From a bacterium (GTDB lineage: Bacteria > Patescibacteriota > Minisyncoccia > Portnoybacterales > GWB1-42-6), in contig JAZDMV010000023.1 in assembly GCA_043800535.1 (NCBI GenBank), positions 111,186-175,185 of the forward strand: a stretch of 64,000 nt of DNA, read 5' to 3'. Positions 1 to 36,521 of this stretch are shown in pieces. The notes beneath the pieces were generated by a model that saw only the letters and a program-made list of their open reading frames with translations, did not search any database and was not told the origin of the DNA. The position numbers and the translations under genes were made by a program. Position 1 is the stretch's first letter. The number at the start of each line of letters is the position of its first letter.

Positions 1-450
1 TTTTATAAAACTTGTCAGCACAATTAAAAACTTCGCTTTCTGCCAAATCTTCCTGTGAGATTTTTTGATTTTTTCTGGTAGAGAATGGACTTCCAGTGCA
101 AAATCCTCGAAAAATAAACCAGCTGCCCGCTCGCGCGTGTATAAAATATCATAACTTTTGCCTGACAAATAAATTCTTGCCGCGATCAAAAAACTGGCTA
201 ACCTGATCCAGAAATTAAAACGGCCGGCACTGCCGGGATTCAGATCCAGACAAAACAACTGCGTTATTTTAAAATTATCTTTTACGCCGTAATGTGCAAA
301 AAAATCTTCTTTTAAATTTGATGACCGCCGGGGAACCACCAGCTCAACCTCCAGCCCGTTTGCGCCAAACGCCTCGCACATCTTCATTATCTGAATTTCG
401 TGAGCCCAGTTTGCCGGCAAACCGATATTGGCTAAATAGATTAGTTTCAT
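1..450 (-). CDS. Glycosyltransferase family 4 (N-terminal ~150 aa only; the gene continues past the window start)
   Basis: Minus-strand ATG at 450-448 overlaps the gmd stop as ATGA. The translation MKLIYLANIGLPANWAHEIQIMKMCEAFGANGLEVELVVP has the N-terminal GT4 fold signature. The ORF runs open to position 1. Confidence 0.55.
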   Translation of the reverse strand, partial: MKLIYLANIGLPANWAHEIQIMKMCEAFGANGLEVELVVPRRSSNLKEDFFAHYGVKDNFKITQLFCLDLNPGSAGRFNFWIRLASFLIAARIYLSGKSYDILYTRERAAGLFFEDFALEVHSLPEKIKKSHRKIWQKAKFLIVLTSFIK

Positions 451-1451
451 ATGTGCTTCAAAAATTGCTGGCTGTGTTTTAACGGTTCCCGATATTTTTC
501 CAGATCCGCCTCAACCATCATTTTGACCAGTTCCTTAAAGGTGACTTTCGGCTGCCAGCCAAGTTTTTCTCTGGCTTTTGATGGGTCACCCAAAAGATAT
601 TGCACGTCATTTGGCCGATAGAACTTTTTATCCGTCTCTACATATTGGCTCCAATCAAGACCAATACAACCAAAGGCCTCCTGGCAGAACTCTTTGACAG
701 TGTGAGATTCCCCTGTGGCAATAACATAATCATCGGCTTCTTTTTGCTGCAGCATCAACCACATTGCTTTAACATAATCGCCGGCAAATCCCCAATCCCG
801 TTTGGCCTCAAGATTCCCCAAATAGATCTTGTCGCTATAGCCCATTTTAATCCGGGCTGCTCCATCGGTGATTTTTCTGGTCACAAATTCAACCCCCCTA
901 ATGGGTGACTCATGGTTGAATAAGATGCCGGAGCAGGCAAATAGGCCGTAGCCTTTGCGATAGCTTTTGGTGACCCAGTGGGCATAGAGCTTGGCCGCCG
1001 CATACGGACTGTTTGGCTCAAAAGGTGTATTCTCGTTTTGTGGCGGCGGCGCGTCACCGAACAATTCCGAGGTTGAGGCCTGATAAAATCTTATTTTTGG
1101 ATCCAATATGCGGATAGAATCCAGGATCCTTGTGACGCCAAGACCCGTTATTTCTCCCGTGGCGATTGCTTCATCAAACGAGACGCCGACAAAGCTTTGG
1201 GCGGCCAGATTATAGATCTCATCGGGCTCACACTGCTTGATGGCGGATAAAATGGAGGTCTGGTCAAGCAAGTCCAGCGGAATGAGTTCGATGTTCTTTT
1301 TGACATCAAGATAATGCAGGCGCCAAAAATTTCTGGTGCTTGAACGCCTATAGCCGCCATAAACTTTGTATCCTTTCTCGATCAAAAATTTGGCCAGATA
1401 CGGCCCGTCCTGGCCGGTAATGCCTGTGATTAAAGCGCGTTTGTTGAACAT
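447..1451 (-). CDS. gmd: GDP-mannose 4,6-dehydratase
   Basis: Rossmann N-terminus ALITGITGQDGPYLAKFLIEKGY. YAAAKLY is the SDR YxxxK motif. Length 334 aa is typical for Gmd. Confidence 0.9.
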   Translation of the reverse strand: MFNKRALITGITGQDGPYLAKFLIEKGYKVYGGYRRSSTRNFWRLHYLDVKKNIELIPLDLLDQTSILSAIKQCEPDEIYNLAAQSFVGVSFDEAIATGEITGLGVTRILDSIRILDPKIRFYQASTSELFGDAPPPQNENTPFEPNSPYAAAKLYAHWVTKSYRKGYGLFACSGILFNHESPIRGVEFVTRKITDGAARIKMGYSDKIYLGNLEAKRDWGFAGDYVKAMWLMLQQKEADDYVIATGESHTVKEFCQEAFGCIGLDWSQYVETDKKFYRPNDVQYLLGDPSKAREKLGWQPKVTFKELVKMMVEADLEKYREPLKHSQQFLKHI

Positions 1452-1492
1452 AGTTTTTTTTAATTTTAATAATAAATTTGTCTTTTAATATT

Positions 1493-3058
1493 CTATTCCC
1501 AGCCCAAAATTTCGGGAATTTTATCTTTTATCTTTTCGTAATTGCGCTCTTTGATGATATCGTAGGCCAAATTAAAAATTTTCATCACGTCTTCTTTGCT
1601 AAAATCCTTGGTCTGAACCACCGGCATATCGGGCCTCAATCTCAGCTTATCAAGCTCAAGATTGTTGTCCAGTGCCCCCATTTCCTGGGCCATTTGGAAT
1701 GCTTTGGTGCCGGGCAATGGTTGAAAAACATAGAATCTGGCTCCATCCATGCCCGATTCAAAGGCGAATTTTAACGTTTTTATCATGGTCTGACGCGTCT
1801 CGCCCGGATAGCCAAAGATAAAAAATCCACGGGTGCGCAAGCCAACCTCTTTTGCCTGCGCAATAATTTCTTTAATTTTTTCTAGCCTCAGGTTTTTACA
1901 GATGACTTTATCCAAAAATTCCTGGTCGCCATTTTCAACGCCAAACTGCAATTCTCTCAAGCCAGCTTTATATAGATATTCAAGGGCTTCTTTGTCAAGC
2001 GAAGGGAGAAAAACGCCGCTGGGCGTGACCAAGCGGACATTATGTTTGCGTTCAATAATACCCTTGCATATCTCAATGGTCCGGGATTTTGAAACGGTAA
2101 AATTATCGTCAACGATAACGATCTCTTTGGCGCCGTGCTTAACTAAAATGTCGATTTCGTCCAAAACATTTTTTGAAGAACGTATCCGATAAGTTTCTCC
2201 CCAAACCGCGTGAATGGCACAAAAGGTGCATCGGTTAGGGCAGCCGCGGCTGGTAATAATAAAACCGTGGGGCATAAAAAGCGCTTTTGGCTTGTTTCTG
2301 TGCCGCCAATTGAAAAATCTGGCAAAAATATAGCGAATTCCGGGGACAGAAAGAGACGCGTATAAAATCCAGCTTTTTACAAGCTTCTTTAAATTAAAAT
2401 GCCTGGAATAACCATAACCGGCTGGCTTTGAATAATTATAAAGTCCAAGAGAGCCGCGATGCGGAAAAATAATTTTATCAAGGTCTGTTTGAACAGGCCG
2501 CGCCTGATTATAAATAATTTCGCCCGAACCGAGTTTACGGAAACAAATTCCTTTGACCGCTGCCAGATTATCTAAATTGTCCGCCAGGTCAACCGCCGTT
2601 TCCTCCCCTTCTCCCAAAACAATCGCGTCAAAGCTTTTGCACTCGCGCATAACCTCGGCCTTGTAAGAAGAAGGGAACGCTCCTCCGCCAAAAACGAAAA
2701 TGTCCTTGTCAGCTTCTTTTGCCAGGTCAGCTGTTTGATAAAAAGAGCTTGCCTGGGCGTAAAACATACCCGAAATCCCGATAATATCCGGCTTAAATTT
2801 TTTGACCTCTTTTGCAATGTGCCGTTTTTCGCTGCCGCAGTGAAAAAGATTTTTTTCAGGCAAAAACCGCACGTTTCTTGGATGCTCGACCAGACAGTCA
2901 TAAATTTTGACTTCGTGGCCATGAGCCAACAATGCTGACTGGATATATTGCAGGCCCAATGGTTCAAAGGGCAAAAAAACCAACTCATTTTCCTGCATTT
3001 CAAAAAAGGGCCTGACCAGCAAAATTCGGTGTTTCCCTTTTTTAAAAACATCATTCAT
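1493..3058 (-). CDS. B12-binding domain radical SAM protein (class B radical SAM, methyltransferase-like)
   Basis: N-terminal cobalamin-binding Rossmann-like region (ILLVRP...LGLQYIQSALLAHGHEV). Radical SAM cluster motif CPNRCTFC (CxxxCxxC). Confidence 0.85.
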   Translation of the reverse strand: MNDVFKKGKHRILLVRPFFEMQENELVFLPFEPLGLQYIQSALLAHGHEVKIYDCLVEHPRNVRFLPEKNLFHCGSEKRHIAKEVKKFKPDIIGISGMFYAQASSFYQTADLAKEADKDIFVFGGGAFPSSYKAEVMRECKSFDAIVLGEGEETAVDLADNLDNLAAVKGICFRKLGSGEIIYNQARPVQTDLDKIIFPHRGSLGLYNYSKPAGYGYSRHFNLKKLVKSWILYASLSVPGIRYIFARFFNWRHRNKPKALFMPHGFIITSRGCPNRCTFCAIHAVWGETYRIRSSKNVLDEIDILVKHGAKEIVIVDDNFTVSKSRTIEICKGIIERKHNVRLVTPSGVFLPSLDKEALEYLYKAGLRELQFGVENGDQEFLDKVICKNLRLEKIKEIIAQAKEVGLRTRGFFIFGYPGETRQTMIKTLKFAFESGMDGARFYVFQPLPGTKAFQMAQEMGALDNNLELDKLRLRPDMPVVQTKDFSKEDVMKIFNLAYDIIKERNYEKIKDKIPEILGWE

Positions 3059-4178
3059 CGGCTAATACACGCTTAAAATTACGGCAGATGAAACTGACTT
3101 GCTTTTCGGTCAGAAGCGTACTGCTTGGCAGACTGATACCGTGCTGATAGGCATATTCAGCATTGGGAAATTTTTGGTTCATGGCATACGGCTGAAAAGG
3201 TTTTTGCAGGTGCAGCGGCTTAAAAAACGGACGGGAGGCAACCCCTTTCTCTGAGAGCTTCTGGCGAACAGCGTCTATATCTTTATTTATTAACACACTG
3301 AAAAGCCAGCAGACGGCCTCGGCTTTTTTATCATTTGAAAGCTGAAAAGTAATGCTAGGGCAATTGGCCAGCAATTTTTCATAAAGCAATTTCATCGTCT
3401 TGCGCGCCTTAAGAAATTTCTGGAATCTTTCAAATTGAGCGCAACCAACAGCCGCTTGAAGATTCGTCATCCTGTAATTGTAGCCAACCACTTCGTGGTC
3501 ATAAACGCCCCGCGAACGCATTCCATGGTTCTTTAAAATGGCCATTTTTTCGTATAGTTCCTGGCTATCGGAAAGACAAACTCCGCCTTCGCCTGTTGTC
3601 AAAATTTTATTACCGTAAAAAGAAAAACAGCTGACTTCGCCAAAGTTGCCGACCGGTTTGCCACCAAAAAAGGCGCCGTGCGATTCAGCTGCATCTTCTA
3701 TCAAAAAGATCTTATGCGCTTTACACCAATGAACAATATAATCGTAATCGCATGGCATACCGTAAGTATCAACTGCTATCAATGCTTTAGTCCTCTTGGT
3801 CAATTTTTTATCCAATTCTTTTACGTCAAGATTCCAGTCGTTTTTATTGATATCGACAAAAACCAGCTTTGCGCCGCAATGGATGACAACCGCGGCCGGC
3901 GCGGCAAAAGTAAAAACTGGCACAATGACTTCGTCCCCTGGCCCAATACCCAGGGCCAGCAGGGCCAGATGCAAAGCCGTAGTTCCGCTTGAACAGCTTA
4001 ACGCAAATTTACGCCCAAAATTTTTGGCGGCCAAAACCTCAAACCTGTCAATATATTTTCCGGCCGAAGAAACTCTGCCTTCATTTTTTATCGCATCAAT
4101 CAGATATTTTACCTCGTTGCCTGAAAGGTCCGGTGCGGCCACTGGTATTTTTTTCATATTTTTATTTGTGCTTAGCAA
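3051..4178 (-). CDS. DegT/DnrJ/EryC1/StrS family PLP-dependent sugar aminotransferase
   Basis: FSFYGNKILTTGEGGV contains the conserved PLP-lysine motif. 375 aa. Overlaps its neighbours by 8 and 17 nt. Confidence 0.85.
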   Translation of the reverse strand: MLSTNKNMKKIPVAAPDLSGNEVKYLIDAIKNEGRVSSAGKYIDRFEVLAAKNFGRKFALSCSSGTTALHLALLALGIGPGDEVIVPVFTFAAPAAVVIHCGAKLVFVDINKNDWNLDVKELDKKLTKRTKALIAVDTYGMPCDYDYIVHWCKAHKIFLIEDAAESHGAFFGGKPVGNFGEVSCFSFYGNKILTTGEGGVCLSDSQELYEKMAILKNHGMRSRGVYDHEVVGYNYRMTNLQAAVGCAQFERFQKFLKARKTMKLLYEKLLANCPSITFQLSNDKKAEAVCWLFSVLINKDIDAVRQKLSEKGVASRPFFKPLHLQKPFQPYAMNQKFPNAEYAYQHGISLPSSTLLTEKQVSFICRNFKRVLADE

Positions 4179-4989
4179 TTATCGTCATGCTTTCCAATTC
4201 TCCTTCACGCTGAATACCCCTGAATTTTCCGCTGGGGAAAATATCAATTATTGATAAACCGACCTTATTTAATATTTTTTTTATTGACCTCTCTGTAAAA
4301 TGCCAGGTATGGTCAACTAAAGATAACCAAGGTCCTTGAGCACTCATTTTAGGAATCCGAATAACAAAAATTCCGTCTTGAGCCAAAAGTGGTTTTATTT
4401 TTTTAATAAACGATGATGGATTCTGAACGTGCTCAAGAAGGCTGTACATCGCGATAACATCGTAACGACTCTTTCTCAAAGAGTTGGTAAAAGAACCTTG
4501 CGGAGGAGAAAAAACCACTTTCAGCCCTTTTTTTTGACAAATTTTTATCGCTTCTTTTGAAAATTCAACGCCATCGGTTGTCTTAAAACCTTTTTCTTTG
4601 GCCGCTATCAAGGTGTGGCCGTAAGCGCAGCCAACCTCTAAAATCGACTCTGGATTCTTTTTGTATTTTAAAATTTCTTCTACCCTTATCTTGGCGATGG
4701 CCGTTGATTTTTCGTCGCTAACCGTTAACCCATACATATCGTCCGTACCTTTAAAATAAGAGGGGTGGTTATAGAGGCTGTCCAGATATTCTGGGCCTGG
4801 CTGAGGGAAAAGGAATAATAAATCATCAGCGACACAATGCCTGATCCTGTAAGTCTCTGCGTTGATGCTGAAAATAAATCTATCCGCTGTTTTATTTTTT
4901 CCGCGACAAAGGCAACAGCGCACAAAATGGCTGTCTTGAGATTTCAGCCACGGGTATTTTAAATTTAATTGGGGAAGATTTTTTTTCAT
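4162..4989 (-). CDS. Class I SAM-dependent methyltransferase (Cys-rich N-terminus)
   Basis: SAM-binding motif I ILEVGCAYGHTL. An acidic motif follows. The N-terminus carries a CCLC...C...C cluster. Confidence 0.7.
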   Translation of the reverse strand: MKKNLPQLNLKYPWLKSQDSHFVRCCLCRGKNKTADRFIFSINAETYRIRHCVADDLLFLFPQPGPEYLDSLYNHPSYFKGTDDMYGLTVSDEKSTAIAKIRVEEILKYKKNPESILEVGCAYGHTLIAAKEKGFKTTDGVEFSKEAIKICQKKGLKVVFSPPQGSFTNSLRKSRYDVIAMYSLLEHVQNPSSFIKKIKPLLAQDGIFVIRIPKMSAQGPWLSLVDHTWHFTERSIKKILNKVGLSIIDIFPSGKFRGIQREGELESMTIIAKHK

Positions 4990-6248: not shown

Positions 6249-6326
6249 AATTTACTGTCAATTTAAGCACTCAAATTACATCACTATATTCGCATTTTTT
6301 GAGGTTTTTGTAAAGTTTTATGGACA

Positions 6327-6377: not shown

Positions 6378-7385
6378 TTAAATCATTCCTGGGCCTCTCG
6401 TGACCCAAGCATGGATAGCAATAAGGGCAGAGCGCGACTCAGTTGGATTCATGAAATCGCTGTCGATCACCTCAACCGTAGCTGAAATTTCCTGAGAGGA
6501 AGCGTTGATATATCTCACCAGTTCAATAAAATTTTCCTCTCCAATATTTCCCTCACCAGGAATTAGACCCTCTCTGAACCGACAAGTTCCCTCCCGCCAG
6601 ATACCCCAGACGTCAGACATATGGATATGAGGCGTCACGTCCTGCACTTGCTTATAGACATTTACCAAATTACCTTGCGCGCTTAATGTGCCCCAGTGAC
6701 ACGTATCGAATGTCATAAGAAACCCGTTCTTTTTAACGAATCCCCTTATCTCTAAGGGATCCGCGAACAAGGGATCGTAGACCATGTCATTGGAGGAAAA
6801 GAATGTATCGCCCATAAGAGGTACTGGCATGTTCTCGATGGCCAGCCCAACTCCCTGCTTTTTGACCCGCGAAAGGTTTCCAGCGACTTCCGAAAGAAGC
6901 TGGAGTCTATCACGATCAGTCAACCCCTCCATTTCTGCATGGCTCATAAGTGTCTCGGCGTGGACGTTTACCAAACTAGCGCCAATCCTGCTCGCGAGCG
7001 CGAAAACCTCATTGAGGATTTCCACGCTTTCAGGTCGCGAAAGATTGGTCGGCGCAGCCTCGTAATTATCACGGGTCACAGGCGCGTGGACCACGATCCG
7101 TTGCAGAGAAATCTCCTTTCTTGCTGCCTCCAGATTTTTGATGGTGTCATCCGCTTTTGAAACGGTGACAAAATTATCCAACGGCCCCACGATCTCAAGA
7201 CCCGTTGAGACACATAAATGCCGGTATCTCTCAATATGATCAAAGTCTCGAAGGCCCTTCAAAAGATCTACCCTTGTCGCCACATCCTTCTCCTTACTCG
7301 CCCTACAGGGCGTGCAGATAACGATCATCTCCAGTCCCTCCTTTTTTGCTATGGATTTTAGGTACAATCCAATATTATATACCAC
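6378..7385 (-). CDS. Sugar phosphate isomerase/epimerase, xylose-isomerase-like TIM barrel family
   Basis: Metal-ligand style motifs VVHAPV, VNVHAE, LAIENMP and FDTCHWG. The true start may be the internal MIVICTP. Confidence 0.55.
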   Translation of the reverse strand: MVYNIGLYLKSIAKKEGLEMIVICTPCRASKEKDVATRVDLLKGLRDFDHIERYRHLCVSTGLEIVGPLDNFVTVSKADDTIKNLEAARKEISLQRIVVHAPVTRDNYEAAPTNLSRPESVEILNEVFALASRIGASLVNVHAETLMSHAEMEGLTDRDRLQLLSEVAGNLSRVKKQGVGLAIENMPVPLMGDTFFSSNDMVYDPLFADPLEIRGFVKKNGFLMTFDTCHWGTLSAQGNLVNVYKQVQDVTPHIHMSDVWGIWREGTCRFREGLIPGEGNIGEENFIELVRYINASSQEISATVEVIDSDFMNPTESRSALIAIHAWVTRGPGMI

Positions 7386-7498: not shown

Positions 7499-8899
7499 TC
7501 ATATCCTCTGATAAACTTTGTAAACGCCAAATTCTTTGAGTAGGGCGTATTTTTTATCCAAAACATCCTGATATTGCACGGCATATTCGTCGCCTTTCCA
7601 CAAAACTATAAGTTCGGGCAATTTGTCATCTGAAAACGAAAGCGGATTCTCCCCTATCTGGCGGACGTCGGAAATGACGTGATATTTTTTTTCGGGCGGG
7701 ATAAACGCCGCCACCTGAGAAAGATTAATGATGCCGACGCTCTGGGCGGAGCGGCTGTTCACGAATGAAGACACCTCCTGGGGCCTGGTTGAATAAGCGA
7801 TATCTGAAAAAAAGAACAGCTGGACAACCTGAACTGAAATTAAAATGCCGCAAAAGACCAGTGCCTGCCACTTCTTAAAGATAAGTAAAAAAGAGGGGTA
7901 AATCAAAATAAGCGTTAAAAGCTCCAGGGCAAAAAGATATCTGAACCAGCCGGGGCTGCGCAAAAAATAAATAATAACAAGCGCGCCATAAATGCAGAAA
8001 AATAAAAAGGATTTCTGCCATATTTCCGGGATCGCTTTCCTGTGTCTGACAAAAGCGAAAACAGCCGCAAAGATCAAAAGAGAAAAATAGATCAGCGTGG
8101 TTTGCGAAAAGAACCCGGAAACATTATTCAAAAAATTAGTCGTCAGCGAAGGTGAATCAATGAACGGATTCTGATAAAGCTTATAAATATTTATCCAGCC
8201 GCCCACGGAAAAGAAATCCGGAATGATGAAAATAAAATATAAAAGCACGGGTAAAAAGCCGCCTGCCGCAAATTTAACTATTTTAAAAATTATATCCTTG
8301 CGAAAAAATAAAACATAGATTAAAAAAACCAGGGGTAAAGCGTGATAAATTGAGGGCTTGGCGGCCAAAGCCAGGCCGAAAAACAACCCAACCAACCAAT
8401 AATTCTCTCTTTTTATCAGATAATACAAACCCAGAAGCAAAAAGACAAAGCCCGGCACCTCTCCGGTCACGGGCCGGCCAATGCCAAAAAAAGAAGCGAA
8501 AGTGACGCATAATAATAAAGCATAAATAGCCGCCGGCTTGCCAAAAAAAGACCGCGTGACAAAATAAATCGTTGCTAGGGCGGCCAGGAGCCACAAAATC
8601 ATAAAGATCCTGGCCTGATCCCAGCCGAATCCAAAAATGGAGAAAAATCCCGCCAGAGGGACCATGGCCGGATAATTGCTTGTGACCAGAGTATAGGAAG
8701 CATTTGAAAATATCCCGGGAGCGGTTTGGATGTCCAGTTTGCCAAATAAAGAAAAATTTTGCGCCGCCTCAATATTAAAAGCTTCGTCAGGCCAGATGCT
8801 TGGTTTGGTCGCCAAGTTGTTCAGAGAAAAAACGACAACAAAAGCAAAAACCATTGTCAGTATCAGGACCTCATAATTTTTTTTAAAAAAATCAGCCAT
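7499..8899 (-). CDS. Polytopic membrane glycosyltransferase, GT-C fold (ArnT/PMT, GT39/GT83-like)
   Basis: More than 10 predicted TM helices. DE-type motif IWPDEAF lies in the first loop. AAKPSIYHALPL resembles the ArnT KPPL region. Confidence 0.5.
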   Translation of the reverse strand: MADFFKKNYEVLILTMVFAFVVVFSLNNLATKPSIWPDEAFNIEAAQNFSLFGKLDIQTAPGIFSNASYTLVTSNYPAMVPLAGFFSIFGFGWDQARIFMILWLLAALATIYFVTRSFFGKPAAIYALLLCVTFASFFGIGRPVTGEVPGFVFLLLGLYYLIKRENYWLVGLFFGLALAAKPSIYHALPLVFLIYVLFFRKDIIFKIVKFAAGGFLPVLLYFIFIIPDFFSVGGWINIYKLYQNPFIDSPSLTTNFLNNVSGFFSQTTLIYFSLLIFAAVFAFVRHRKAIPEIWQKSFLFFCIYGALVIIYFLRSPGWFRYLFALELLTLILIYPSFLLIFKKWQALVFCGILISVQVVQLFFFSDIAYSTRPQEVSSFVNSRSAQSVGIINLSQVAAFIPPEKKYHVISDVRQIGENPLSFSDDKLPELIVLWKGDEYAVQYQDVLDKKYALLKEFGVYKVYQRI

Positions 8900-9554
8900 T
8901 TTCTTTTAAAAACAAAATTGAACAATACCAAGAAAAGTTAATCGGCAGCCATCTGGGAAAAATTATCATTTTTTCAACTCTAAAATGTTTTTTTGCCGCC
9001 TCAATGATGTCTTTGTGGCTAGAAGGATGCATCGCTCTGGGGTTCCATTCTTTTTTGCTCCAGCCAAATGTCTGGAAAAAAAAATCCGTTATCATATTGC
9101 GCACGGGAAAGGAAATCACTGCTTTACCGCTTTTTTGCATAACCCTTTTGACTTCAAGAAACGCCTTATCGAGATCATTCGGAAAAATGTGCTCAAAAAT
9201 GCTAACTGCCACCACTCCGTCAAAAAACTCATCCTGATATGGTAATTCAAGAACCGAGCCCTGCAAAAGTTCCGCTTTGACCCCCATTTTTGCAAGCATC
9301 GCCTCAACATCAGGAATTTTTTCGTGGATATCTATTCCAAAAAGATTTTGAGAGCGGCGCGACAATTCCGGCAGAAGGATACCGCTACCAAAGCCGATCT
9401 CCAGCAAGTTTTTATAACTCTTGCCCAAAAGATCCAAGGTGTTCATCAGCCGCTTTTTAAAAACGTAGCCGACCAGAGGAACATAATGATAAAAAATCGG
9501 GTCTCCGGCGTCCGTTTTTAACATTTTTCTCCGCGGCGGCAATAGCATTTTCAT
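8892..9554 (-). CDS. Class I SAM-dependent methyltransferase
   Basis: Motif I LLEIGFGSGILL. Post-I acidic residue in FGIDIHE. Confidence 0.7.
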   Translation of the reverse strand: MKMLLPPRRKMLKTDAGDPIFYHYVPLVGYVFKKRLMNTLDLLGKSYKNLLEIGFGSGILLPELSRRSQNLFGIDIHEKIPDVEAMLAKMGVKAELLQGSVLELPYQDEFFDGVVAVSIFEHIFPNDLDKAFLEVKRVMQKSGKAVISFPVRNMITDFFFQTFGWSKKEWNPRAMHPSSHKDIIEAAKKHFRVEKMIIFPRWLPINFSWYCSILFLKENG

Positions 9555-10315: not shown

Positions 10316-10687
10316 TTATGGCTTTGTCAATAAAAAGATCCCGCCGATGATCAGGGCCACTCCTAAAATCTGCGCAAAATTAAGACTTTCTTTAAAAATG
10401 ACAGAAGAGGCAATAACGATCGCAATCAAATTTAAGCTGGCTGTAATGGGGTATATAATATTTAAGTTAAGCCGGGAAAGAGTTAAAAGCCACGTTACAA
10501 AACCAAAAACCAAAAGAGCTAATCCTCCCAAAATATAGAAGTTCTTGAAAATTAACAAAAAGGCATTCCATAAATTGGCGAACGATATATCCATCGCCCC
10601 TTGGACTGCCATCCCTTTTTTCAAAAGCAGCTCCGCAGCGGCCAAAAATATAATGTTTGCGGCGACTAGAACATATAATGGTATCAT
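10316..10687 (-). CDS. Small 4-TM SMR/EamA-like membrane protein (ArnE/ArnF-like candidate lipid-linked sugar flippase subunit)
   Basis: 123 aa with four hydrophobic helices. Its size and topology match ArnE/ArnF. It sits between a radical SAM gene and methyltransferase genes. Confidence 0.5.
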   Translation of the reverse strand: MIPLYVLVAANIIFLAAAELLLKKGMAVQGAMDISFANLWNAFLLIFKNFYILGGLALLVFGFVTWLLTLSRLNLNIIYPITASLNLIAIVIASSVIFKESLNFAQILGVALIIGGIFLLTKP

Positions 10688-14282: not shown

Positions 14283-14289
14283 AATCACC

Positions 14290-23969: not shown

Positions 23970-23972
23970 AAA

Positions 23973-25403: not shown

Positions 25404-25407
25404 CATC

Positions 25408-25965: not shown

Positions 25966-25969
25966 TGCT

Positions 25970-27073
25970 TTAATAAGTTATCTTAAATAAGCCGTTTATC
26001 AGCAAGCGCAGCCCATCGTCGTATATTAACCAGAAATAATTGCCCGCCAGAATTATTGTAAGCAAGAGAGCATAAGCGTAAGTTTTGTGCACCCAGTTGC
26101 CCAAGTTAACCATCCCGAAGCTGGCAAAAATACAGAGCAAAAATGCAATTACGTAAAAGAGACGGGAAGAGGCGCCTATCCAGAGAAGCGGCAAAAGAGA
26201 CGGCGCAAAAAGCGCTAATAAAATTTTCTTATTCTCGTTTGCCATCTTTTTTATTTTCAAAACGCCGGCAAAAACTAAAAGCCAACCCAGCAAGAAAGTT
26301 GCGCCTAAACTTTTGGCCACTACCTGAACAAGCTGCTCTTTATACAGTTCGGCCCGACCCAACGAAAACCAGTCAAAATATGAAAAATGGAATTTAAAAT
26401 AAACAAATGCCTGCCAAGCCAGAAACACAGGCGCAAAAAACAAGCCATAAACCGCCAGATACTTTATTTTCTGCAAAAAATCTCCTTTATAAATAAAAAA
26501 CAGGCAAATGAAAAAAAACAGGATCCCGACCGCGGCATATTCTTTTGTCAAGAACCCGGCTAGGCAAATCAAGCCGTTTAAAATTATCCATTTGTATCGC
26601 GGCTCTTTCAAAAAAACCAGCGTCAAATAGATCGAAAGCGCGCAGAAAAACCAGCTTGCCAGATCCGTCATATAAGTTATGCCGTATTCCAGCATCGGAT
26701 AGCTGGCTAAAAAAAGAACCGAAGCAATAAACGCCTGCTTATCGTCGTCAAACATCAACTTCACTATTTTAAAAATGACGAAAGCTATCAAAAAATAAAA
26801 AATACTGTTCAAAAAAAGGAAAGACGCCTTAAGGCCGAACACATACGAGCTTATTGCGATAAAAAAAGGCATTAATGGTTTAAGCAGGCGCTGGGCCACG
26901 GGCGCTGCCTCCCCCCTAAAATATTGGGCTGTCATGGCATAGCCTTCTGAATCAGAGCTGAAAGGAGCGGTAAATTTCAACAAAAAAACATTTATAATAA
27001 AAATATTAAGCAGGGCAAAGATCGCCAGGCCGACAAAATAACTCCGCGGAATTTTTGAATCCAAAACGTTCAT
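25970..27073 (-). CDS. Polytopic integral membrane protein of unknown function (possible GT-C-like transferase or polymerase)
   Basis: 367 aa, about 10 hydrophobic helices and no soluble domain recognised. It sits between a GT2 gene and a methyltransferase gene. Confidence 0.4.
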   Translation of the reverse strand: MNVLDSKIPRSYFVGLAIFALLNIFIINVFLLKFTAPFSSDSEGYAMTAQYFRGEAAPVAQRLLKPLMPFFIAISSYVFGLKASFLFLNSIFYFLIAFVIFKIVKLMFDDDKQAFIASVLFLASYPMLEYGITYMTDLASWFFCALSIYLTLVFLKEPRYKWIILNGLICLAGFLTKEYAAVGILFFFICLFFIYKGDFLQKIKYLAVYGLFFAPVFLAWQAFVYFKFHFSYFDWFSLGRAELYKEQLVQVVAKSLGATFLLGWLLVFAGVLKIKKMANENKKILLALFAPSLLPLLWIGASSRLFYVIAFLLCIFASFGMVNLGNWVHKTYAYALLLTIILAGNYFWLIYDDGLRLLINGLFKITY

Positions 27074-27765
27074 CGCAGTAAATTAAATCTTATGATATGC
27101 CAAAAAGTGGCCAGGCCGTCTTTCCAATTGATTTTTTTGCCCTCCTGGTATGTCCTGCCTGAATACGAAATGCCAATTTCGTAAATTCTGAATTTGCCCT
27201 TGGCAAAACGTGCCGTCAACTCCGGCTCAATGCCAAAGCGCCTTGACTTAAGTTTTGGCAGAATTTTATCCAGAACTTCCTTGGTAAAACATTTATAGCA
27301 GGTTTCCATGTCCGTTAACGTCAAATTCGTCAGCATATTTGAAAAGAATGTCAGCAACTTATTGCCCAAATAATGCCAAAAGAACAGAACCCGATGAGGA
27401 TTGGCCGTCAGCATGCGCGAACCATAAACAACATCTGCTTTGCCTTTAAGAATCGGTTCGAGCATTGTCGGATATTCGGCCGGGTCATATTCAAGGTCCG
27501 CGTCTTGGATGATAATAATGTCTCCTGAGGCCTGCAAAAAGCCGCTGCGCAGTGCCGCTCCCTTGCCGTAATTTTTGTCGTGAAAAATAATTTTATAATT
27601 ACCCTGCAACGCCTTAAGAATTTCCCGCGTGCCGTCATCTGAAAAATCATCCACCAAAATTATTTCTTTTGCCAGGTTTTCGGCCGGGCTTTTTTCTACG
27701 CGCCTGACAATTTCGCGGATCGTATTTTTTTCGTTATAAACAGGGATAACAATAGAAAGTTTCAT
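27070..27765 (-). CDS. Glycosyltransferase family 2, polyprenyl-phosphate sugar synthase-like (DPM1/ArnC-like)
   Basis: MKLSIVIPVYNEKNTIREIV...ILVDDFSDDGT...IIQDADLEYDP. Confidence 0.8.
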   Translation of the reverse strand: MKLSIVIPVYNEKNTIREIVRRVEKSPAENLAKEIILVDDFSDDGTREILKALQGNYKIIFHDKNYGKGAALRSGFLQASGDIIIIQDADLEYDPAEYPTMLEPILKGKADVVYGSRMLTANPHRVLFFWHYLGNKLLTFFSNMLTNLTLTDMETCYKCFTKEVLDKILPKLKSRRFGIEPELTARFAKGKFRIYEIGISYSGRTYQEGKKINWKDGLATFWHIIRFNLLR

Positions 27766-27774
27766 AATTTATAA

Positions 27775-29226
27775 TTAAGCAGTCCTCTTTTTAAAAAAGA
27801 AGGAGAGCAGCGCCAATCCTCCGCTTAGCATAATTCTTATATCGCCCAGCGACCTTATGCCAAAAATCTTTTTTAGGATATATTTTGGCCGGAAATAAAA
27901 ACTACGATACATTATCTGATACAGCCCGGATATCTCATTCTCGGTCAGATTTTCCAGACGCATGACGGGCTTGGCCAAAGTATAATCATCCCAGTCATAA
28001 GTCAGAAGTAATTTCCGTTCGTGGGCCCATTTAAACATTTCGGTGCCGGGAAAAGGGGTAGTTATATTTACAATCAACAGATCAGGATTTATTCTGTTCA
28101 CGAATTTGATATTCTTTTTTATAACCTCAAGATCGTCACCCGGATTTCCCACCATAAAAGCGAGGCGGCATTCAATCCCCGCTTTTTTTGTCCAGGAAAC
28201 AGCATTTATTACCTGCTCAAGATTTATTTTCTTATTGATATTTTTCAAAACTGTTTCATCGATATTTTCCACGCCATACATTATCTGATGACAACCGGCT
28301 TGTTTCATTTTTGCCAGCATTTCTTCGTCAACGAAATCCACCCGCGCAAAACACGTCCAGGTTAGGTCTATTTTATTTTTGAGCAACAAATCGCAAAGTT
28401 TAATTACGTTATCTTTGAAGACAGTAAAGGTGTCGTCATAAAACAAAATTTCCTTAATGCCATAGTTGCCAATCAAAAATTCTATTTCCTTAAAAATCGC
28501 CTCAGCGGACTTAAAAACCATCTGTTCGCCGAGGGTCTTTGAGCAAAAAGTACACCTGCCCGGACAGCCACGCGAAGTCATCATGCTCATTGCCGGCAGG
28601 CGTTTATATGAGCCCTTGGCAGGCCGGTATTTTTCAACAGGCAAAAGGTCATAAGCCGGCATGGGCAACGAATCCAAATCCGTAATGCGTTCTCTTGGTT
28701 TGTTTTTTATTATTTTTACTCCGCCAGGCAAATTCTTTTTAAAAACGATCCCATCTATTTCTTCTAAATTTTTCCCGGCTACAAGCTCCCCTGCCGTTAT
28801 CTCACCTTCGCCTACAACCACGACGTCAATAAATTCTTTGGCAATTACTTCGCCAACCACAAAGGTTGGATGCACTCCGCCAAAAACAATCAACGCTTCA
28901 GGGTATAATCTCTTGCATATTTGCGAGATCTCGTACGCTTTTTTTATTGTGCCCGTCACGGCCGTTATCCCGATTACTTTTATTTTATCAAATTTTTCGC
29001 TGAAGTTCTGCCGGAAATACTGTTCAAAAGCGTCAACCGACGGACAGAATATGTCGCAATCAAGGATCCGGACAGAGTGGCTTTTACTGCGCACATAGCC
29101 CGCTATGGAAGCCAGGCCGAGCGGCGGAAAATTTGAATTTATTCGCTTCCAGATGTTTTCGTCGTCCTTATAAAACATGGGTGGCGAGATCAGGAGGCAA
29201 TCCAACTGTCTGTTTTTTTCTTCCAT
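27775..29226 (-). CDS. B12-binding domain radical SAM protein
   Basis: GCPGRCTFC. The N-terminal B12-binding region LGLASIAGYVRSKSHSVRILDC. Confidence 0.85.
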   Translation of the reverse strand: MEEKNRQLDCLLISPPMFYKDDENIWKRINSNFPPLGLASIAGYVRSKSHSVRILDCDIFCPSVDAFEQYFRQNFSEKFDKIKVIGITAVTGTIKKAYEISQICKRLYPEALIVFGGVHPTFVVGEVIAKEFIDVVVVGEGEITAGELVAGKNLEEIDGIVFKKNLPGGVKIIKNKPRERITDLDSLPMPAYDLLPVEKYRPAKGSYKRLPAMSMMTSRGCPGRCTFCSKTLGEQMVFKSAEAIFKEIEFLIGNYGIKEILFYDDTFTVFKDNVIKLCDLLLKNKIDLTWTCFARVDFVDEEMLAKMKQAGCHQIMYGVENIDETVLKNINKKINLEQVINAVSWTKKAGIECRLAFMVGNPGDDLEVIKKNIKFVNRINPDLLIVNITTPFPGTEMFKWAHERKLLLTYDWDDYTLAKPVMRLENLTENEISGLYQIMYRSFYFRPKYILKKIFGIRSLGDIRIMLSGGLALLSFFFKKRTA

Positions 29227-31837: not shown

Positions 31838-31841
31838 CAGA

Positions 31842-32372: not shown

Positions 32373-32381
32373 AATATTTTA

Positions 32382-33560: not shown

Positions 33561-33568
33561 TTTAGCGG

Positions 33569-34534
33569 TTAAATAATTTTTCTAAAATATTCTATTGTTT
33601 TTTTAAGCCCCCCTTCAAGCGGAATTTTCGGCTGCCAGCCCAGCATCTTTTTGGCCAAGGAAATATCGGGCCGCCGCTGTTTCGGGTCGTCGGAAGGCAA
33701 CGGCTTAAAAACAATTTTGCTTTTTGAACCGGTCAATTTAATTACTTTAGCTGCTAATTCTTTTATGGCGAACTCATTCGGATTGCCAAGATTAACCGGC
33801 CCGACGAAATTTTCCTCCTTCATCATCAAAATCAGCCCTTTGATCAAATCGTCTATGTAACAAAAACTTCTTGTCTGGCTACCATCGCCATAAATTGTAA
33901 TTGGATCTCCTTTCAATGCATGAAAAATAAAATTCGGCACCGCCCTTCCGTCATTATGGCTCATTCTTGACCCATAGGTGTTAAAAATTCTGACCACTTT
34001 TATATCAACGCCGTATTCGTTCCAATAATCAAAAAATAAAGTTTCGGCACATCGCTTCCCTTCGTCATAACAGCTTCGCAAGCCGAACGGATTGACATTA
34101 CCCCAGTAACTTTCCGGCTGCGGATGAATTTCCGGGTCTCCATATATTTCAGAAGTTGAGGTTTGCAAAACCCGGCATTTTAATTTTTTAGCCAACTCTA
34201 AGGCGTTAATCGCGCCCAAGATATTCGTCTTAACGGTTTTGACGGGATCTTTCCGATACCAAATCGGGGCGGCCGGACAAGCCAAATTATAAATCTCGTC
34301 TACTTTGAAATAATAAGGTTTTTCTGCGTCATGTTTAACCAGCTTAAAACTTTTATTTTTTAAAAGATGAGCGATATTGTTGCGCGAGCCCGCAAAAAAA
34401 TTATCAAGGCAGATAACTTTATCGCCCCGCCTAATCAGATATTCGCACAAATGCGAGCCGATAAAACCGGCGCCGCCGGTTACCAAAGCGGTTTTTTGAT
34501 TTTTCGATTTTTTACCTGTCTTTTGCCTGTTCAT
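33569..34534 (-). CDS. UDP-glucuronate decarboxylase (UDP-xylose synthase)-type NAD-dependent epimerase/dehydratase
   Basis: [27 protein letters not shown] is the YxxxK motif. Strong overall similarity to UXS/ArnA-decarboxylase family members. Confidence 0.8.
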
Positions 34535-35315
34535 CTTTCTTTATAAGTTCGTCATTAATCTTCTCCGCTATTTTTAGCAACTTAAGGTCAACGCCCAAAT
34601 CATCCCCTTTTTGGATTAAGGCCTTGATATCTTTTGGTAGGCATTTACCGCCATAGCCGCGATATCCTTTATGGAAAATTTCAAGATGCGTCCGGCCGAT
34701 TCTTTTGTCAGCCGCGGCGCATTCCATCATCCGGCTATAATCTATTTTCAGGGCCTGGCAAAGATCATACATCTGGTTGGCAAAAATCACTTTCACCGAA
34801 AACCATGTATTGCCAAAATATTTGATCATTTCCGCTTCGGTAGCCGGGATAATTCTTTCAAGCGGGGCCAAGGGCAAAATTTGCATGATATCGCCGGCGA
34901 TGCTATAACTCTTTTTTGTGTAGCCGACAATCTGCCGGTCAGGATAGCGCATATCCTGATCAGCGGACAGCTCGGTCAAAAATTCAGGATTGAACAAAAT
35001 TTTGTGCCGGGGATATTTTTTCTGAAAATATTCCGTGGTGCCGGGCAAAACAGTTGATTTGATGACAACGATTCTCGGGCCATTTAACAATTTAAAGGCC
35101 TCTTCCACCGCCGACAGGTCAAATCCACCTCTTTTATCAAAAGGCGTCGGCACGCATATAAAAATGACATCTGCTTTATTGACGTCTTTTGACGAACCCA
35201 GGCCTGCGTACTTATCATACAAAAGCGGCTTTTCCCCGCTCGACTCAAAATAACGGACCATTGCTCCGCCCACCATGCCAACTCCAATAATGCCAATTTT
35301 ATGTTTTTTTATCAT
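34512..35315 (-). CDS. Nucleotide-sugar (UDP-glucose/GDP-mannose) 6-dehydrogenase family, short form lacking the C-terminal NDP-sugar-binding domain
   Basis: [33 protein letters not shown] carries the catalytic Cys motif. Only 267 aa, and it ends right after the central domain. Confidence 0.65.
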
Positions 35316-35343
35316 TGGCTTGCTTATTTGTTCGTTATTTTAT

Positions 35344-35372
35344 ATTCTAAATTGAGAAGGGCTAAAAGTCAA
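35344..35372 (-). promoter_or_regulatory. Sigma70-like promoter for the long minus-strand glycan operon
   Basis: Minus strand reads TTGACT, a 17-nt spacer, then TAGAAT. It lies about 25 nt upstream of the 35315 start codon. Confidence 0.4.
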
Positions 35373-35375
35373 TTT

Positions 35376-36521
35376 ATGGACCAGACGAAAAAAAGAATCC
35401 TATATCTAATAACCCAATCAAATTTTGGCGGCGCCCAAAAATACGTTTTTGATTTGGCGACCAATCTAGATAAGCGTGATTTTGATGTGGCGGTGGCAGC
35501 TGGCGGCAATGGCGAACTTTTTTCTCGTCTTGGGGCAGCGGGAATCAAGGTTTTCGAGCTCAAATGGCTACGCCGTTCAATCCTCAACCCAATAGCCGAC
35601 TTAATGGCTTATTTTGAGATTAAAAAACTGCTTGAAACCTGGCAGCCGGATGTACTCCATCTTAATAGCTCAAAAATCTCGGTTTTAGGCGCTTTAGCCG
35701 CCCGCAACCTGCCTATAAAAGTTATCTACACAGTTCATGGCGTTGTTTTTAAAGGGTCTTTCTCCTGGCTGGCAAAAAGGTTTTTCCTTTGGGCCGAAAC
35801 TTGGACCGCCCAATTCAAACACAAGATCATCTGCGTTTCCGAATACGACCGCGCTCTTTGGCAAAGGCATTGCGTTGCTCCGCCAGAAAAATTAATCACC
35901 ATCCACAACGGCATAGATTTAAACATGAATTTTCTGCCCAAAGACCAGGCGCGAAAAATCATTTTTAATAATTGCGCGCTGCCGGACAATTGTCATATCG
36001 TCGGCTGGCTCGGCTATTTTTACCCTGAAAAGAATCTTCTTACTTTGCTTACCGCCGCCGAGCTCCTTTTGCCTGTTCAAAGGACTAAACGCAAAAACGT
36101 AATTTTTGCCATTATCGGCAACGGGCAACTGGAAAAGGAGTTAAAAGCAAAAGTAAAAAATTCCGGCCTGCAGGACAAAATCCTGTTTTTTGGCGCAATT
36201 CAGGAAGCCAAACAATATATCAAGGCCTTTGATGTTTTAACTTTACCCTCTACCAAAGAAGGCCTGCCCTACACAATTATGGAAGGGATGGCCGCCGGCG
36301 TGCCAATTGTGGCAAGCCGCGTTGGCGGTATACCGGAAATGATAACTGACAATTTCAACGGATTCTTAATTTCGCCAAGAGACCCAGAAGCATTAGCCGA
36401 AAAAATAATGCAGATCATTGAAAACCCGGCGCTCGCCCGCCAGTTTTCCCAAAATTCGCTCCAGCGCGTTAAGGAATTTTCTCTGGAAAAAATGACCATG
36501 CAAACCCAGGCGTTGTATTAA
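35376..36521 (+). CDS. Glycosyltransferase family 4 (divergently transcribed)
   Basis: RILYLITQSNFGGAQKYVF. EGLPYTIMEGMAAGVPIVASRVGGIPEMI. The start is taken at MDQTKK (the six-frame ORF starts at 35301). Confidence 0.8.
   Translation: MDQTKKRILYLITQSNFGGAQKYVFDLATNLDKRDFDVAVAAGGNGELFSRLGAAGIKVFELKWLRRSILNPIADLMAYFEIKKLLETWQPDVLHLNSSKISVLGALAARNLPIKVIYTVHGVVFKGSFSWLAKRFFLWAETWTAQFKHKIICVSEYDRALWQRHCVAPPEKLITIHNGIDLNMNFLPKDQARKIIFNNCALPDNCHIVGWLGYFYPEKNLLTLLTAAELLLPVQRTKRKNVIFAIIGNGQLEKELKAKVKNSGLQDKILFFGAIQEAKQYIKAFDVLTLPSTKEGLPYTIMEGMAAGVPIVASRVGGIPEMITDNFNGFLISPRDPEALAEKIMQIIENPALARQFSQNSLQRVKEFSLEKMTMQTQALY

Follow-up and report, generated by a model that had tools for sequence, protein, structure and literature searches.

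The 64-kb stretch of DNA analysed here, from an uncultured, Portnoybacteria-like member of the Patescibacteria (64,000 nucleotides of contig JAZDMV010000023.1, in the following called the window) carries at positions 1-36521 a cell-envelope glycoconjugate locus with a conserved core and variable accessory blocks. As a whole the locus is a glycan biosynthesis cluster of known kind, and within it we found an uncharacterised variant: a triad of genes encoding a family 2 glycosyltransferase (GT2), a radical S-adenosylmethionine (SAM) protein with a B12-binding domain and a polytopic transferase of the GT-C type. Family calls were made by hidden Markov model (HMM) scans of all open reading frames (ORFs) of the window with Pfam, and the curated cut-offs of NCBIfam/TIGRFAM were used for subfamily membership. 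The radical SAM, GT2 and GT-C genes of the locus are the following (coordinates, strand, description, evidence; TM, transmembrane).

1493-3058, - strand: B12-binding radical SAM no. 1, divergent, with a spacer of ~100 aa between both domains; PF02310 74 bits, PF04055 90 bits
7499-8899, - strand: GT-C (PMT_2/ArnT-like), last gene of the Arn-like unit; PF13231 39.5 bits (gathering cut-off 26.1), ~11 TM helices
10696-12144, - strand: B12-binding radical SAM no. 2 (HpnJ-like clade), adjoining GT2 12120-12776; PF02310 86 bits, PF04055 110 bits, HpnJ model 269 bits (cut-off 577)
12120-12776, - strand: GT2, polyprenyl/dolichyl-phosphate hexose synthase-like, no TM helix; PF00535 97 bits, sub-threshold AglJ 126 bits and dolichyl phosphate (Dol-P) hexose transferase 86 bits
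15948-17615, - strand: GT-C (PMT_2); PF13231 27.4 bits (gathering cut-off 26.1), ~10 TM helices
17620-18978, - strand: GT-C (PMT_2), conserved partner of the pair of GT2 and radical SAM no. 3; PF13231 36.8 bits
18962-20383, - strand: B12-binding radical SAM no. 3 (HpnJ-like clade), most conserved gene of the locus; PF02310 96 bits, PF04055 107 bits
20380-21072, - strand: GT2, DPM1/AglJ/ArnC-like candidate polyprenyl-phosphate sugar synthase, 230 aa; PF00535 135 bits
23973-25478, - strand: B12-binding radical SAM no. 4 (second clade, with no. 6), a methyltransferase gene on either side; PF02310 78 bits, PF04055 91 bits
25970-27073, - strand: GT-C (PMT_2), 367 aa, accessory block; PF13231 43 bits, ~11 TM helices
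27070-27765, - strand: GT2, paralogue of 20380-21072 (44.5% identical); PF00535 120 bits
27775-29226, - strand: B12-binding radical SAM no. 5 (HpnJ-like clade), adjoining GT2 27070-27765; PF02310 66 bits, PF04055 86 bits
29229-30695, - strand: B12-binding radical SAM no. 6 (conserved core), between GT4 genes; PF02310 64 bits, PF04055 66 bits

Recurrence of the triad in other genomes

By a GTDB-wide scan we obtained 282 radical SAM relatives and fetched 80 loci from one-genome-per-species contigs, each with 10 kb on either side of the radical SAM gene, onto which the window proteins were mapped by tblastn (loci carry L numbers). In 25 of these loci, from Patescibacteria, Elusimicrobia, DPANN archaea and a few others, the radical SAM protein is at least 54% identical to no. 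3. Within this close-orthologue set a GT2 gene lies on the same strand within 600 nt in 23 of the 25 loci and a GT-C gene within 2.5 kb downstream in 16 of them, and the identities of the radical SAM gene and of the adjoining GT2 co-vary (r = 0.89). Orthologues of GT2 20380-21072 are 62-87% identical, and those of GT-C 17620-18978 (54-63%) immediately follow the radical SAM gene in Patescibacteria loci. The pairing of radical SAM and GT2 genes is also present in Planctomycetota and other phyla, usually without an adjoining GT-C gene, and distant orthologues from Phycisphaerae show the arrangement GT2, radical SAM, DegT. Four loci (L010, L012, L019 and L048) carry genes for Gmd, a short-chain dehydrogenase/reductase (SDR) and DegT immediately upstream of the triad, which parallels the predicted unit 15357 to 7499 of the window. 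Three DPANN contigs, L024 (Nanoarchaeota archaeon SCGC AAA011-G17), L018 and L028, encode an orthologue of radical SAM no. 3 (54-63% identity) that is preceded by the same GT2, and as many as five radical SAM paralogues lie there in 21 kb. The distribution suggests that the cassette has been exchanged between bacteria of the candidate phyla radiation (CPR) and DPANN archaea. A literature search, incomplete in its coverage and weak as evidence, yielded general reviews only and no description of the cassette, of DUF6580 or of CPR glycan loci rich in radical SAM genes.

The three GT2 proteins, which the original prediction from the bare sequence had called DPM1/ArnC-like and which all match PF00535, are short (218-231 aa) and have no clear membrane anchor. 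GT2 20380-21072 shows a single weak hydropathy peak, which falls within the catalytic domain. Its best match in the PDB is the dolichyl phosphate mannose (Dol-P-Man) synthase of P. furiosus (5MLZ, residues 1-212, E 7e-20), followed by ArnC (E 2e-15) and GtrB, and the best NCBIfam models of the GT2 proteins are AglJ, Dol-P hexose transferase, ArnC and PpgS (PpgS with 51-54 bits). They are best read as polyprenyl-phosphate sugar synthases. Where three or four GT-C proteins had been expected there are four, all of which match PMT_2 (PF13231, 27.4-43 bits; gathering cut-off 26.1) and are predicted to have about 9-11 TM helices; sequence searches of the PDB with these proteins gave no match to solved structures.

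The radical SAM proteins

All six proteins with a CxxxCxxC motif proved to have the predicted class B radical SAM architecture, with a radical SAM core and a preceding N-terminal B12-binding (Rossmann) domain. The B12-binding domain PF02310 scores 64-96 bits, well above its gathering cut-off of 32.1, and the radical SAM core PF04055 scores 66-110 bits (cut-off 29.5). The motif reads CPNRCTFC, CPGRCTFC (three times), CPFSCGFC and CPHRCAFC. By pairwise identity nos. 2, 3 and 5 form one clade (44-64%), in which no. 2 is 64% and no. 5 46% identical to no. 3, nos. 4 and 6 form a second group (31%), and no. 1 stands alone with 24-29% identity to the other five. A GT2 gene adjoins each of nos. 2, 3 and 5. 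Among the relatives, the best Patescibacteria matches of no. 3 (Portnoybacteria, Staskawiczbacteria, "Parcubacteria") are 60-82% identical, no. 6 has 55-56% orthologues at the equivalent position in L001, L004 and L015, and no. 1 has a 55% orthologue in L011. With one family member as phmmer query we obtained 14,768 cluster representatives at E 1e-30 or better, a total that covers much of the B12-type radical SAM superfamily and not the GT2-linked family alone.

The best named model for nos. 2, 3 and 5 is HpnJ (TIGR03471), then BchE, and the alignment of the three proteins with the HpnJ model is colinear over the full length. We nevertheless rejected membership in HpnJ, as the scores (215-275 bits for these three, 133-275 bits for all six) lie below the cut-off of 577.6. 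Ten representatives of the family of no. 3 also reach only 223-265 bits or less, and the GT2-linked radical SAM proteins therefore constitute a family distinct from HpnJ. No hopanoid genes (shc, or an hpnH, hpnI, hpnK context) were found in the window by the Pfam scans.

The nearest solved proteins by sequence are AprD4 (core only, with only ~21% identity) and the cobalamin-dependent methylase MgmA/QCMT (both domains). An AlphaFold (AF2) model of no. 3, with a mean predicted local distance difference test (pLDDT) of 78, is likewise nearest to AprD4 (E 4e-24, TM-score 0.66-0.69), then to TsrM, MgmA, OxsB, CysS and TokK, and it shows a conserved C-terminal helical tail (residues 420-472). C-methylation by these enzymes is plausible; their radical chemistry could be C-methylation, deoxygenation/dehydration, oxidation or epimerisation, and sequence alone does not choose among them.

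Natural fusions of this radical SAM family were also encountered. Two proteins of ~700 aa (P0122 and P0209) combine a radical SAM and a class I methyltransferase part, the gene of the former being followed by a PMT_2 GT-C gene, and one uninterrupted ORF of 1879 aa has the order radical SAM, methyltransferase, GT2, methyltransferase, GT2, radical SAM. The fusion proteins and loci concerned are P0142, P0122, P0209 and P0183, L083 2649-8288 and L084 174-2279; one fusion of 2633 aa contains radical SAM, DUF362, ferredoxin, three GT4 (family 4 glycosyltransferase) domains and TPR.

Organisation and conservation of the locus

The remaining genes of the locus are listed below.

1-446, - strand: N-terminal GT4-like fragment, cut by the window edge; single open frame, GT4 look judged by eye, no HMM
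447-1451, - strand: Gmd no. 1; PF16363 425 bits, TIGR01472 425.5 bits (cut-off 415)
3051-4178, - strand: DegT/LegC/PseC-type sugar aminotransferase no. 1; PF01041 360 bits, LegC family 314 bits (below the cut-off of 420)
4162-4989, - strand: class I SAM methyltransferase; Methyltransf_23 75 bits
4986-6248, - strand: GT4, first gene of the leftmost predicted unit; PF00534 100 bits, hairpin upstream at 6369-6339
6378-7385, - strand: xylose-isomerase-like TIM-barrel protein, stand-alone unit, doubtful member of the locus; PF01261 57 bits, promoter-like site 7402-7374, hairpins 7447-7413 and 6369-6339
8892-9554, - strand: class I SAM methyltransferase; Methyltransf_11 60 bits
9562-10299, - strand: class I SAM methyltransferase; Methyltransf_11 78.5 bits
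10316-10687, - strand: small SMR/EamA-type membrane protein, 123 aa, candidate ArnE/F-like flippase; weak matches, TMEM234 30 bits, EamA 21 bits
12773-13852, - strand: DegT-type sugar aminotransferase no. 2; PF01041 335 bits
13896-14348, - strand: small cupin-like protein, start probably the internal Met at ~14276; no Pfam match, WbuC 26 bits (cut-off 42)
14290-15357, - strand: Gmd no. 2, first gene of the Arn-like unit; TIGR01472 489 bits (cut-off 415), hairpin 15469-15436 just upstream
15491-15814, - strand: Dabb (stress-responsive alpha/beta barrel) protein, stand-alone unit, doubtful member of the locus; PF07876 46 bits, promoter-like site 15894-15866, hairpin 15469-15436
21072-22145, - strand: GT4 (conserved core); PF00534 78.5 bits, syntenic in L001, L004 and L006
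22133-23266, - strand: GT4 (conserved core); PF00534 130 bits
23253-23969, - strand: class I SAM methyltransferase (accessory block); Methyltransf_11 65 bits
25408-25965, - strand: class I SAM methyltransferase (accessory block); Methyltransf_23 75 bits
30692-31837, - strand: GT4 (conserved core); PF00534 142 bits
31842-32372, - strand: DUF6580 membrane protein with a fold like the S-component of energy-coupling factor (ECF) transporters, putative small-molecule transporter or flippase; PF20221 176 bits
32382-33560, - strand: GT4 (conserved core); PF00534 141.5 bits
33569-34534, - strand: UDP-glucuronate decarboxylase (UDP-xylose synthase, UXS); human UXS1 2B69, E 9e-116, 390 bits, end to end
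34512-35315, - strand: short UDP-glucose/NDP-sugar 6-dehydrogenase (UGDH), 267 aa, first gene of the main unit; PF03721 and PF00984 only, promoter-like site 35372-35344
35301-36521, + strand: GT4, divergent, start probably the Met at ~35376; PF00534 130.5 bits, PF13439 105 bits

Every substantial ORF from 447 to 35315 lies on the - strand, and the locus extends past the left edge of the window. The claim that all genes share one strand holds for this range and fails for the last GT4 gene (35301-36521), which is divergent on the + strand. As nearly all of the other 27 kb of the window is coded on the - strand too, co-directionality characterises the genome and not the locus. The density of B12-type radical SAM genes is 6 of ~35 genes in the locus versus none in those 27 kb. 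Neighbouring genes overlap by 1, 4 (six times), 8 (twice), 13, 14, 17 (twice), 23 and 25 nt, and two larger apparent overlaps (59 and 71 nt) are probably explained by over-extended start codons. Only four gaps between 447 and 35315 exceed 100 nt, and from 35315 to 15948 twenty consecutive genes follow each other with gaps of at most 9 nt.

Strong terminator-like hairpins of 14-16 bp were found on the - strand at 15469-15436, 7447-7413 and 6369-6339, all of them in larger gaps, and promoter-like sites at 35372-35344, 15894-15866 and 7402-7374, the last with 11 of 12 consensus matches. Unit boundaries drawn from these consensus scans are predictions and not transcription data; they suggest at least five transcription units, i.e. 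not one operon. Unit (a), 35315 to 15948, would comprise the twenty genes from UGDH through the second GT-C. Unit (b) is the Dabb gene alone, unit (c), 15357 to 7499, contains Gmd, cupin, DegT, GT2, radical SAM no. 2, the ArnE/F-like protein, two methyltransferases and GT-C, unit (d) is the TIM-barrel gene alone, and unit (e), from 6248 to past the window edge, contains GT4, methyltransferase, DegT, radical SAM no. 1, Gmd and GT4. The hairpins set the Dabb and TIM-barrel genes apart as single-gene units within the locus. Unit (c) is flanked by terminator-like hairpins on both sides and would be a self-contained Arn-like operon that delivers a GDP-mannose-derived amino-deoxy sugar.

The gene families are co-conserved and not scattered, as had been anticipated, with the core order recurring in homologous Patescibacteria loci. 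This order, UGDH-UXS-GT4-(DUF6580 or GtrA)-GT4-radical SAM no. 6-GT4-GT4-GT2-radical SAM no. 3-GT-C, is found in L001/L008, and parts of it, with variable insertions, in L004, L006, L009, L013 and L015. A Portnoybacteria-like genome has the same core order as the window (UGDH-SDR fusion, GT4, GtrA-GT4, radical SAM, GT4, GT4, GT2, radical SAM) and further on GT2, two GT-C genes, a Gmd-like SDR, DegT, GT2 and GT-C. Relative to L001 the six genes at 23253-29226 (methyltransferase, radical SAM no. 4, methyltransferase, GT-C, GT2, radical SAM no. 5) form an accessory block. Related 21-kb loci contain as many as four or five radical SAM genes of this type, so that richness in radical SAM genes is a recurring trait of CPR/DPANN glycan loci, and the window stands at its upper end.

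The predicted sugar-nucleotide genes were largely borne out. Both Gmd proteins pass the TIGR01472 equivalog cut-off of 415 (425.5 and 489 bits), both DegT proteins match PF01041 (335-360 bits), and UXS aligns with residues 7-319 of human UXS1, the next family scoring ~240 bits lower. UGDH is indeed short: it aligns to residues 94-316 of the 444-aa UGDH 3VTF and retains the catalytic GGxCxPKD motif, and in the Pfam scan the C-terminal UDP-binding domain PF03720 of the three-domain architecture is absent. Its gene overlaps that of UXS by 23 nt, and its equally short counterpart in the relative L001 (868-2853) is part of a 661-aa fusion with an SDR. It may be a minimal or complex-dependent sugar dehydrogenase. 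The FdtA identity proposed for cupin 13896-14348 was rejected, with no Pfam match and a WbuC score below the cut-off. The five class I methyltransferases match Methyltransf_11 or Methyltransf_23, and the count of seven GT4 proteins stands, with five complete ones on the - strand, one on the + strand and the fragment at 1-446.

Two small membrane proteins are candidate transporters. The SMR-like protein 10316-10687, proposed as an ArnE/F-like flippase, scores 36.7 bits with ArnE and 35.9 bits with ArnF, below both cut-offs (92 and 99). DUF6580 sits within the conserved core and is 60-80% identical across Patescibacteria; in L001 its slot is occupied by a GtrA-GT4 fusion. Its AF2 model (pLDDT 89.7) has ThiT, FolT, RibU and PanT as top Foldseek matches (TM-score 0.5-0.62) at non-significant E-values of 0.7-5, and phmmer gave a weak match to the ECF S-component 4HZU_S (E 1e-3). 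Genes for ECF A or T subunits are absent from the window. DUF6580 could be a vitamin importer or a lipid-sugar flippase, and a role as cobalamin importer would be speculation.

A proposed two-compartment pathway

With moderate confidence we read the locus as a two-compartment pathway for an envelope glycan, with cytoplasmic GT4 steps and three donor modules. The two Gmd enzymes would provide GDP-4-keto-6-deoxymannose, from which the DegT enzymes, with the cupin, would make 6-deoxy-amino-hexoses, while the short UGDH and UXS would give UDP-xylose. On the cytoplasmic face the seven GT4 enzymes would glycosylate a lipid or polymer primer. In each of the three donor modules a soluble DPM1/AglJ/ArnC-like GT2 would load a sugar onto polyprenyl phosphate, the adjoining HpnJ-like radical SAM enzyme would edit this sugar at the lipid-linked stage or shortly before it, a candidate flippase (the SMR-like protein or DUF6580) would flip it, and a PMT_2 GT-C would hand it to the acceptor on the outer side of the membrane. 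Further modifications would come from the five class I methyltransferases, as O- or N-methyl groups, and from radical SAM nos. 1, 4 and 6. The adjacency of the genes in these modules is observed; the order of the steps, the substrate of the radical SAM enzymes, the identity of the sugars and the acceptor are what we infer. Of the heavily C-methylated lipid-linked glycan first proposed, the lipid-linked part is a natural reading of GT2, flippase and GT-C genes, whereas the heavy C-methylation had been read into radical SAM proteins that stay below the family cut-offs.

More tentatively, the triad might be a new donor pathway in which the radical SAM enzyme edits a polyprenyl-phosphate sugar that the GT-C then installs, making the surface of a symbiont cobalamin-dependent. 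Ultra-small symbionts of the Patescibacteria/DPANN type are presumed unable to make cobalamin. If the proposal is true, synthesis of the surface glycan would be tied to B12 from hosts or neighbours, possibly imported through DUF6580.

Several observations weigh against these proposals. All functional assignments rest on homology and gene context, and the adjacency of the genes is compatible with NDP-sugar, lipid-linked sugar and finished polymer alike as the substrate of the radical SAM enzyme. A curated NCBIfam cut-off is reached by none of the six radical SAM proteins, by none of the three GT2 proteins and not by the ArnE/F-like protein. Among orthologues with less than 50% identity the adjacency to GT2 drops to 14 of 53 at the tblastn thresholds used. 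A direct fusion of a DPM1-type GT2 with a radical SAM protein was sought among the top 120 GT2 homologues and none was seen, all of them being ~230 aa long, and the GT2 domains of the 1879-aa fusion are not of DPM1 type (26% identity). The window contains no initiating phosphoglycosyltransferase, no Wzx, no ABC exporter and no identified acceptor, and neither a recognisable B12 transporter nor a cobalamin riboswitch, Rfam and tRNA scans of the window having given no match. Moreover, the sugar diol-dehydratase AprD4 binds no cobalamin despite its Rossmann-like N-terminal domain (PMC12931638), and a match to PF02310 therefore does not settle the use of cobalamin, nor need the chemistry be methylation.

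Alternative explanations

The best surviving rival, which we regard as rather unlikely, takes the six enzymes as cobalamin-dependent C-methyltransferases that act on cytoplasmic NDP-sugars like GenK/GenD1, so that the glycosyltransferases would transfer sugars already methylated. Strong matches to PF02310 and PF04055 in all six proteins agree with it, as do MgmA (9CCB), TsrM, TokK and CysS among the nearest structures and the fact that characterised class B radical SAM enzymes are mostly methyltransferases (PMC12931638). The interleaved class I methyltransferases, which elsewhere are fused to the radical SAM family, fit a methyl-rich product as well. However, none of the proteins reaches the cut-off of a curated methyltransferase family, and HpnJ, BchE and AprD4, the best named matches of the GT2-linked clade, are not methyltransferases. 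A pairing with one GT2 family across phyla would also be unexpected for a generic tailoring of NDP-sugars.

The radical SAM enzymes might instead modify a lipid, either the polyprenyl carrier or scavenged membrane lipids, in the manner of HpnP/HpnR, of ladderane-associated enzymes or of archaeal tetraether/ring synthases. In that case lipid remodelling and glycolipid synthesis would be coupled in one locus. In its favour are the general view that Patescibacteria rely on scavenged lipids, sub-threshold NCBIfam matches to HpnJ, HpnR and the lipid-biosynthesis family TIGR04072, and the C-terminal helical tail (420-472), which could associate with the membrane. We consider this improbable: the conserved neighbours are sugar-loading GT2, GT-C and sugar aminotransferase genes and no lipid-synthesis genes, the closest solved structure binds an aminoglycoside sugar, and HpnJ itself acts on the sugar head group and not on the hydrocarbon (PMC13459092).

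That several independent glycan operons (e.g. for a wall polymer, a glycolipid and the O-glycosylation of proteins) form the 36 kb as a mosaic in a compact, strand-biased genome has a similarly small probability in our view. The block from UGDH to GT-C is kept in order in several genomes, and the twenty closely spaced genes of unit (a) also speak against a mosaic. On the other side stand the almost uniform strand of the 64-kb window, the three strong hairpins and internal promoter-like sites with at least five units, the segment 23253-29226, which looks inserted relative to L001, and the accessory content that varies among relatives. A mosaic would be largely compatible with the two-compartment pathway, as independent modules could still work as proposed.

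Very improbable is an action of the radical SAM enzymes on proteins or peptides, as maturases like those of ribosomally synthesised and post-translationally modified peptides (RiPPs) or as modifiers of a surface protein co-decorated by the glycosyltransferases. The RiPP families ApyD and TIGR03975 and the protein methylase MgmA are matched below threshold, and large candidate surface proteins lie nearby, but these points are outweighed by the lack of precursor-peptide, RiPP recognition element and peptidase/exporter genes in 1-36521 and by a partner conserved across phyla that is a GT2 and not a peptide or protease.

Surroundings of the locus and significance

Beyond 36521 the window contains several genes that may touch on the glycan.

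37193-41011, - strand: 1272-aa protein with N-terminal TM/signal segment, Lamin Tail Domain (LTD) and fn3, adjoining the glycan locus
42397-44652 and 44803-47046, - strand: two paralogous polytopic proteins with Wzy_C and TPR; PF04932 81 and 76 bits, ~15 TM helices each
47175-47528, - strand: small DUF559/restriction-endonuclease-like gene bordering a GC-rich stretch, with the Wzy_C genes on one side and the Ser/Thr-rich protein on the other
47835-51308, - strand: 1157-aa protein without Pfam domains, rich in Ser plus Thr (26.6%), N-terminus resembling a signal peptide; local GC content raised (0.52 versus ~0.43)
53646-54509, - strand: sugar-1-phosphate nucleotidyltransferase (NTP_transferase)
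60750-62391, - strand: NifU-like scaffold beside a class V aminotransferase (IscS/NifS-type cysteine desulfurase)
63467-63991, - strand: ROK-family (sugar kinase-like) fragment

The predicted absence of wzx/wzy is correct inside 1-36521 and does not extend to the two Wzy_C genes at 42397-47046 on the same strand. This pair of ~750-aa proteins (O-antigen ligase/O-oligosaccharyltransferase family, 30% identical to each other) lies 6-10 kb beyond 36521; both are candidate final transferases that may or may not belong to the locus. The 1272-aa protein is probably a surface protein and a candidate acceptor, and the Ser/Thr-rich protein, a candidate S-layer or surface glycoprotein, may likewise be an acceptor of the glycan. 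The DUF559 gene may mark a mobile or acquired segment, and the NTP_transferase and ROK genes may supply NDP-sugar precursors. The NifU/IscS-type Fe-S assembly would serve the six radical SAM enzymes but is probably housekeeping.

We know of almost no experimental work on the cell surface of Patescibacteria (CPR) or DPANN archaea, though this surface mediates attachment to the host. The locus represents a concrete, conserved and testable gene set for one Patescibacteria surface glycan. If the proposed role of the triad is true, it would place the largely uncharacterised superfamily of B12-type radical SAM proteins in a new enzymological setting and provide a new way to diversify lipid-linked sugar donors under anoxic conditions. 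Should cobalamin be used, envelope synthesis would have a vitamin dependency in organisms presumed not to make B12.

Comparison with known systems

The locus is not of the classical Wzx/Wzy type of O-antigen or capsule loci, as the whole window gave no match to PF00953, PF02397 or a Wzx-type family and Wzy_C proteins occur only at 42397-47046, outside 1-36521. With the aminoglycoside enzymes AprD4 (a dehydratase) and GenK/GenD1 (C-methyltransferases) the radical SAM proteins share the N-terminal Rossmann/B12-like domain and the radical SAM barrel, and AprD4, the closest solved structure to no. 3, binds an amino sugar. Those enzymes act on soluble secondary-metabolite substrates, whereas the genes described here belong to envelope-glycan loci beside GT2 and GT-C genes.

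HpnJ was assigned from the phenotype of a deletion mutant to the remodelling of hopanoid-bound glucosamine, which is attached by the GT2-type HpnI, and the archaeal calditol synthase Cds is a comparable case of remodelling of a lipid-bound sugar (PMC13459092). The likeness of the HpnI/HpnK/HpnJ and Cds systems to the triad is that a GT2-type transferase first links a hexosamine or hexose to a lipid, and the bound sugar is then remodelled by a radical SAM enzyme. In contrast to the hopanoid pathway, squalene-hopene cyclase, HpnH, HpnG and HpnK are absent from the window, polyprenyl phosphate is the presumed lipid, and a GT-C would pass the product on, which would hardly be possible for a carbocyclic (ring-contracted) product.

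In mycobacteria Ppm1 and PpgS (GT2) provide donors, DprE1/DprE2 edit one donor (DPR to DPA), PimA and PimB are cytoplasmic GT4 enzymes, and PimE, Mpt, Emb, Aft and Rv3779 are the GT-C transferases. The locus resembles this system in combining cytoplasmic GT4 steps with several GT-C steps that would be fed by polyprenyl-phosphate monosaccharides, in its soluble GT2 proteins without TM helices, as in PpgS and the catalytic domain of Ppm1, and in a donor that would be edited while lipid-linked, with no need for Wzx, Wzy or an initiating phosphoglycosyltransferase. It differs in its host, an ultra-small Patescibacteria bacterium, in the editing by a radical SAM enzyme in place of a flavin/NADH epimerase pair, and in that no protein shows above-threshold orthology to a mycobacterial enzyme.

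The locus is a member of neither the mycobacterial nor the Arn system (PmrHFIJKLM), which attaches 4-amino-4-deoxy-L-arabinose to lipid A. From Arn it differs in its GDP-mannose-derived precursor (Gmd), which is UDP-GlcA in Arn, in GT2 proteins without the transmembrane helices of ArnC, in one small membrane protein where Arn has the pair ArnE/ArnF, and in an editing enzyme that is a radical SAM protein with a B12-binding domain. Neither the formyltransferase domain of ArnA nor an ArnD deformylase/polysaccharide-deacetylase domain was detected in window ORFs of at least 100 aa, no lipid A synthesis genes were seen in the window, the only place where they were sought, and all scores of the locus proteins with Arn models are below the curated cut-offs. 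At the family level the likeness is nevertheless broad, and unit 15357 to 7499 matches the Arn order, with GT2 12120-12776, PMT_2 7499-8899 and DegT 12773-13852 in one predicted unit. UGDH/UXS correspond to Ugd and the C-terminal domain of ArnA, DegT to ArnB, GT2 to ArnC, the SMR-like protein weakly to ArnE/F and the PMT_2 GT-C to ArnT, and the editing of the lipid-linked sugar, which is the task of ArnD there, would here be carried out by the radical SAM enzyme.

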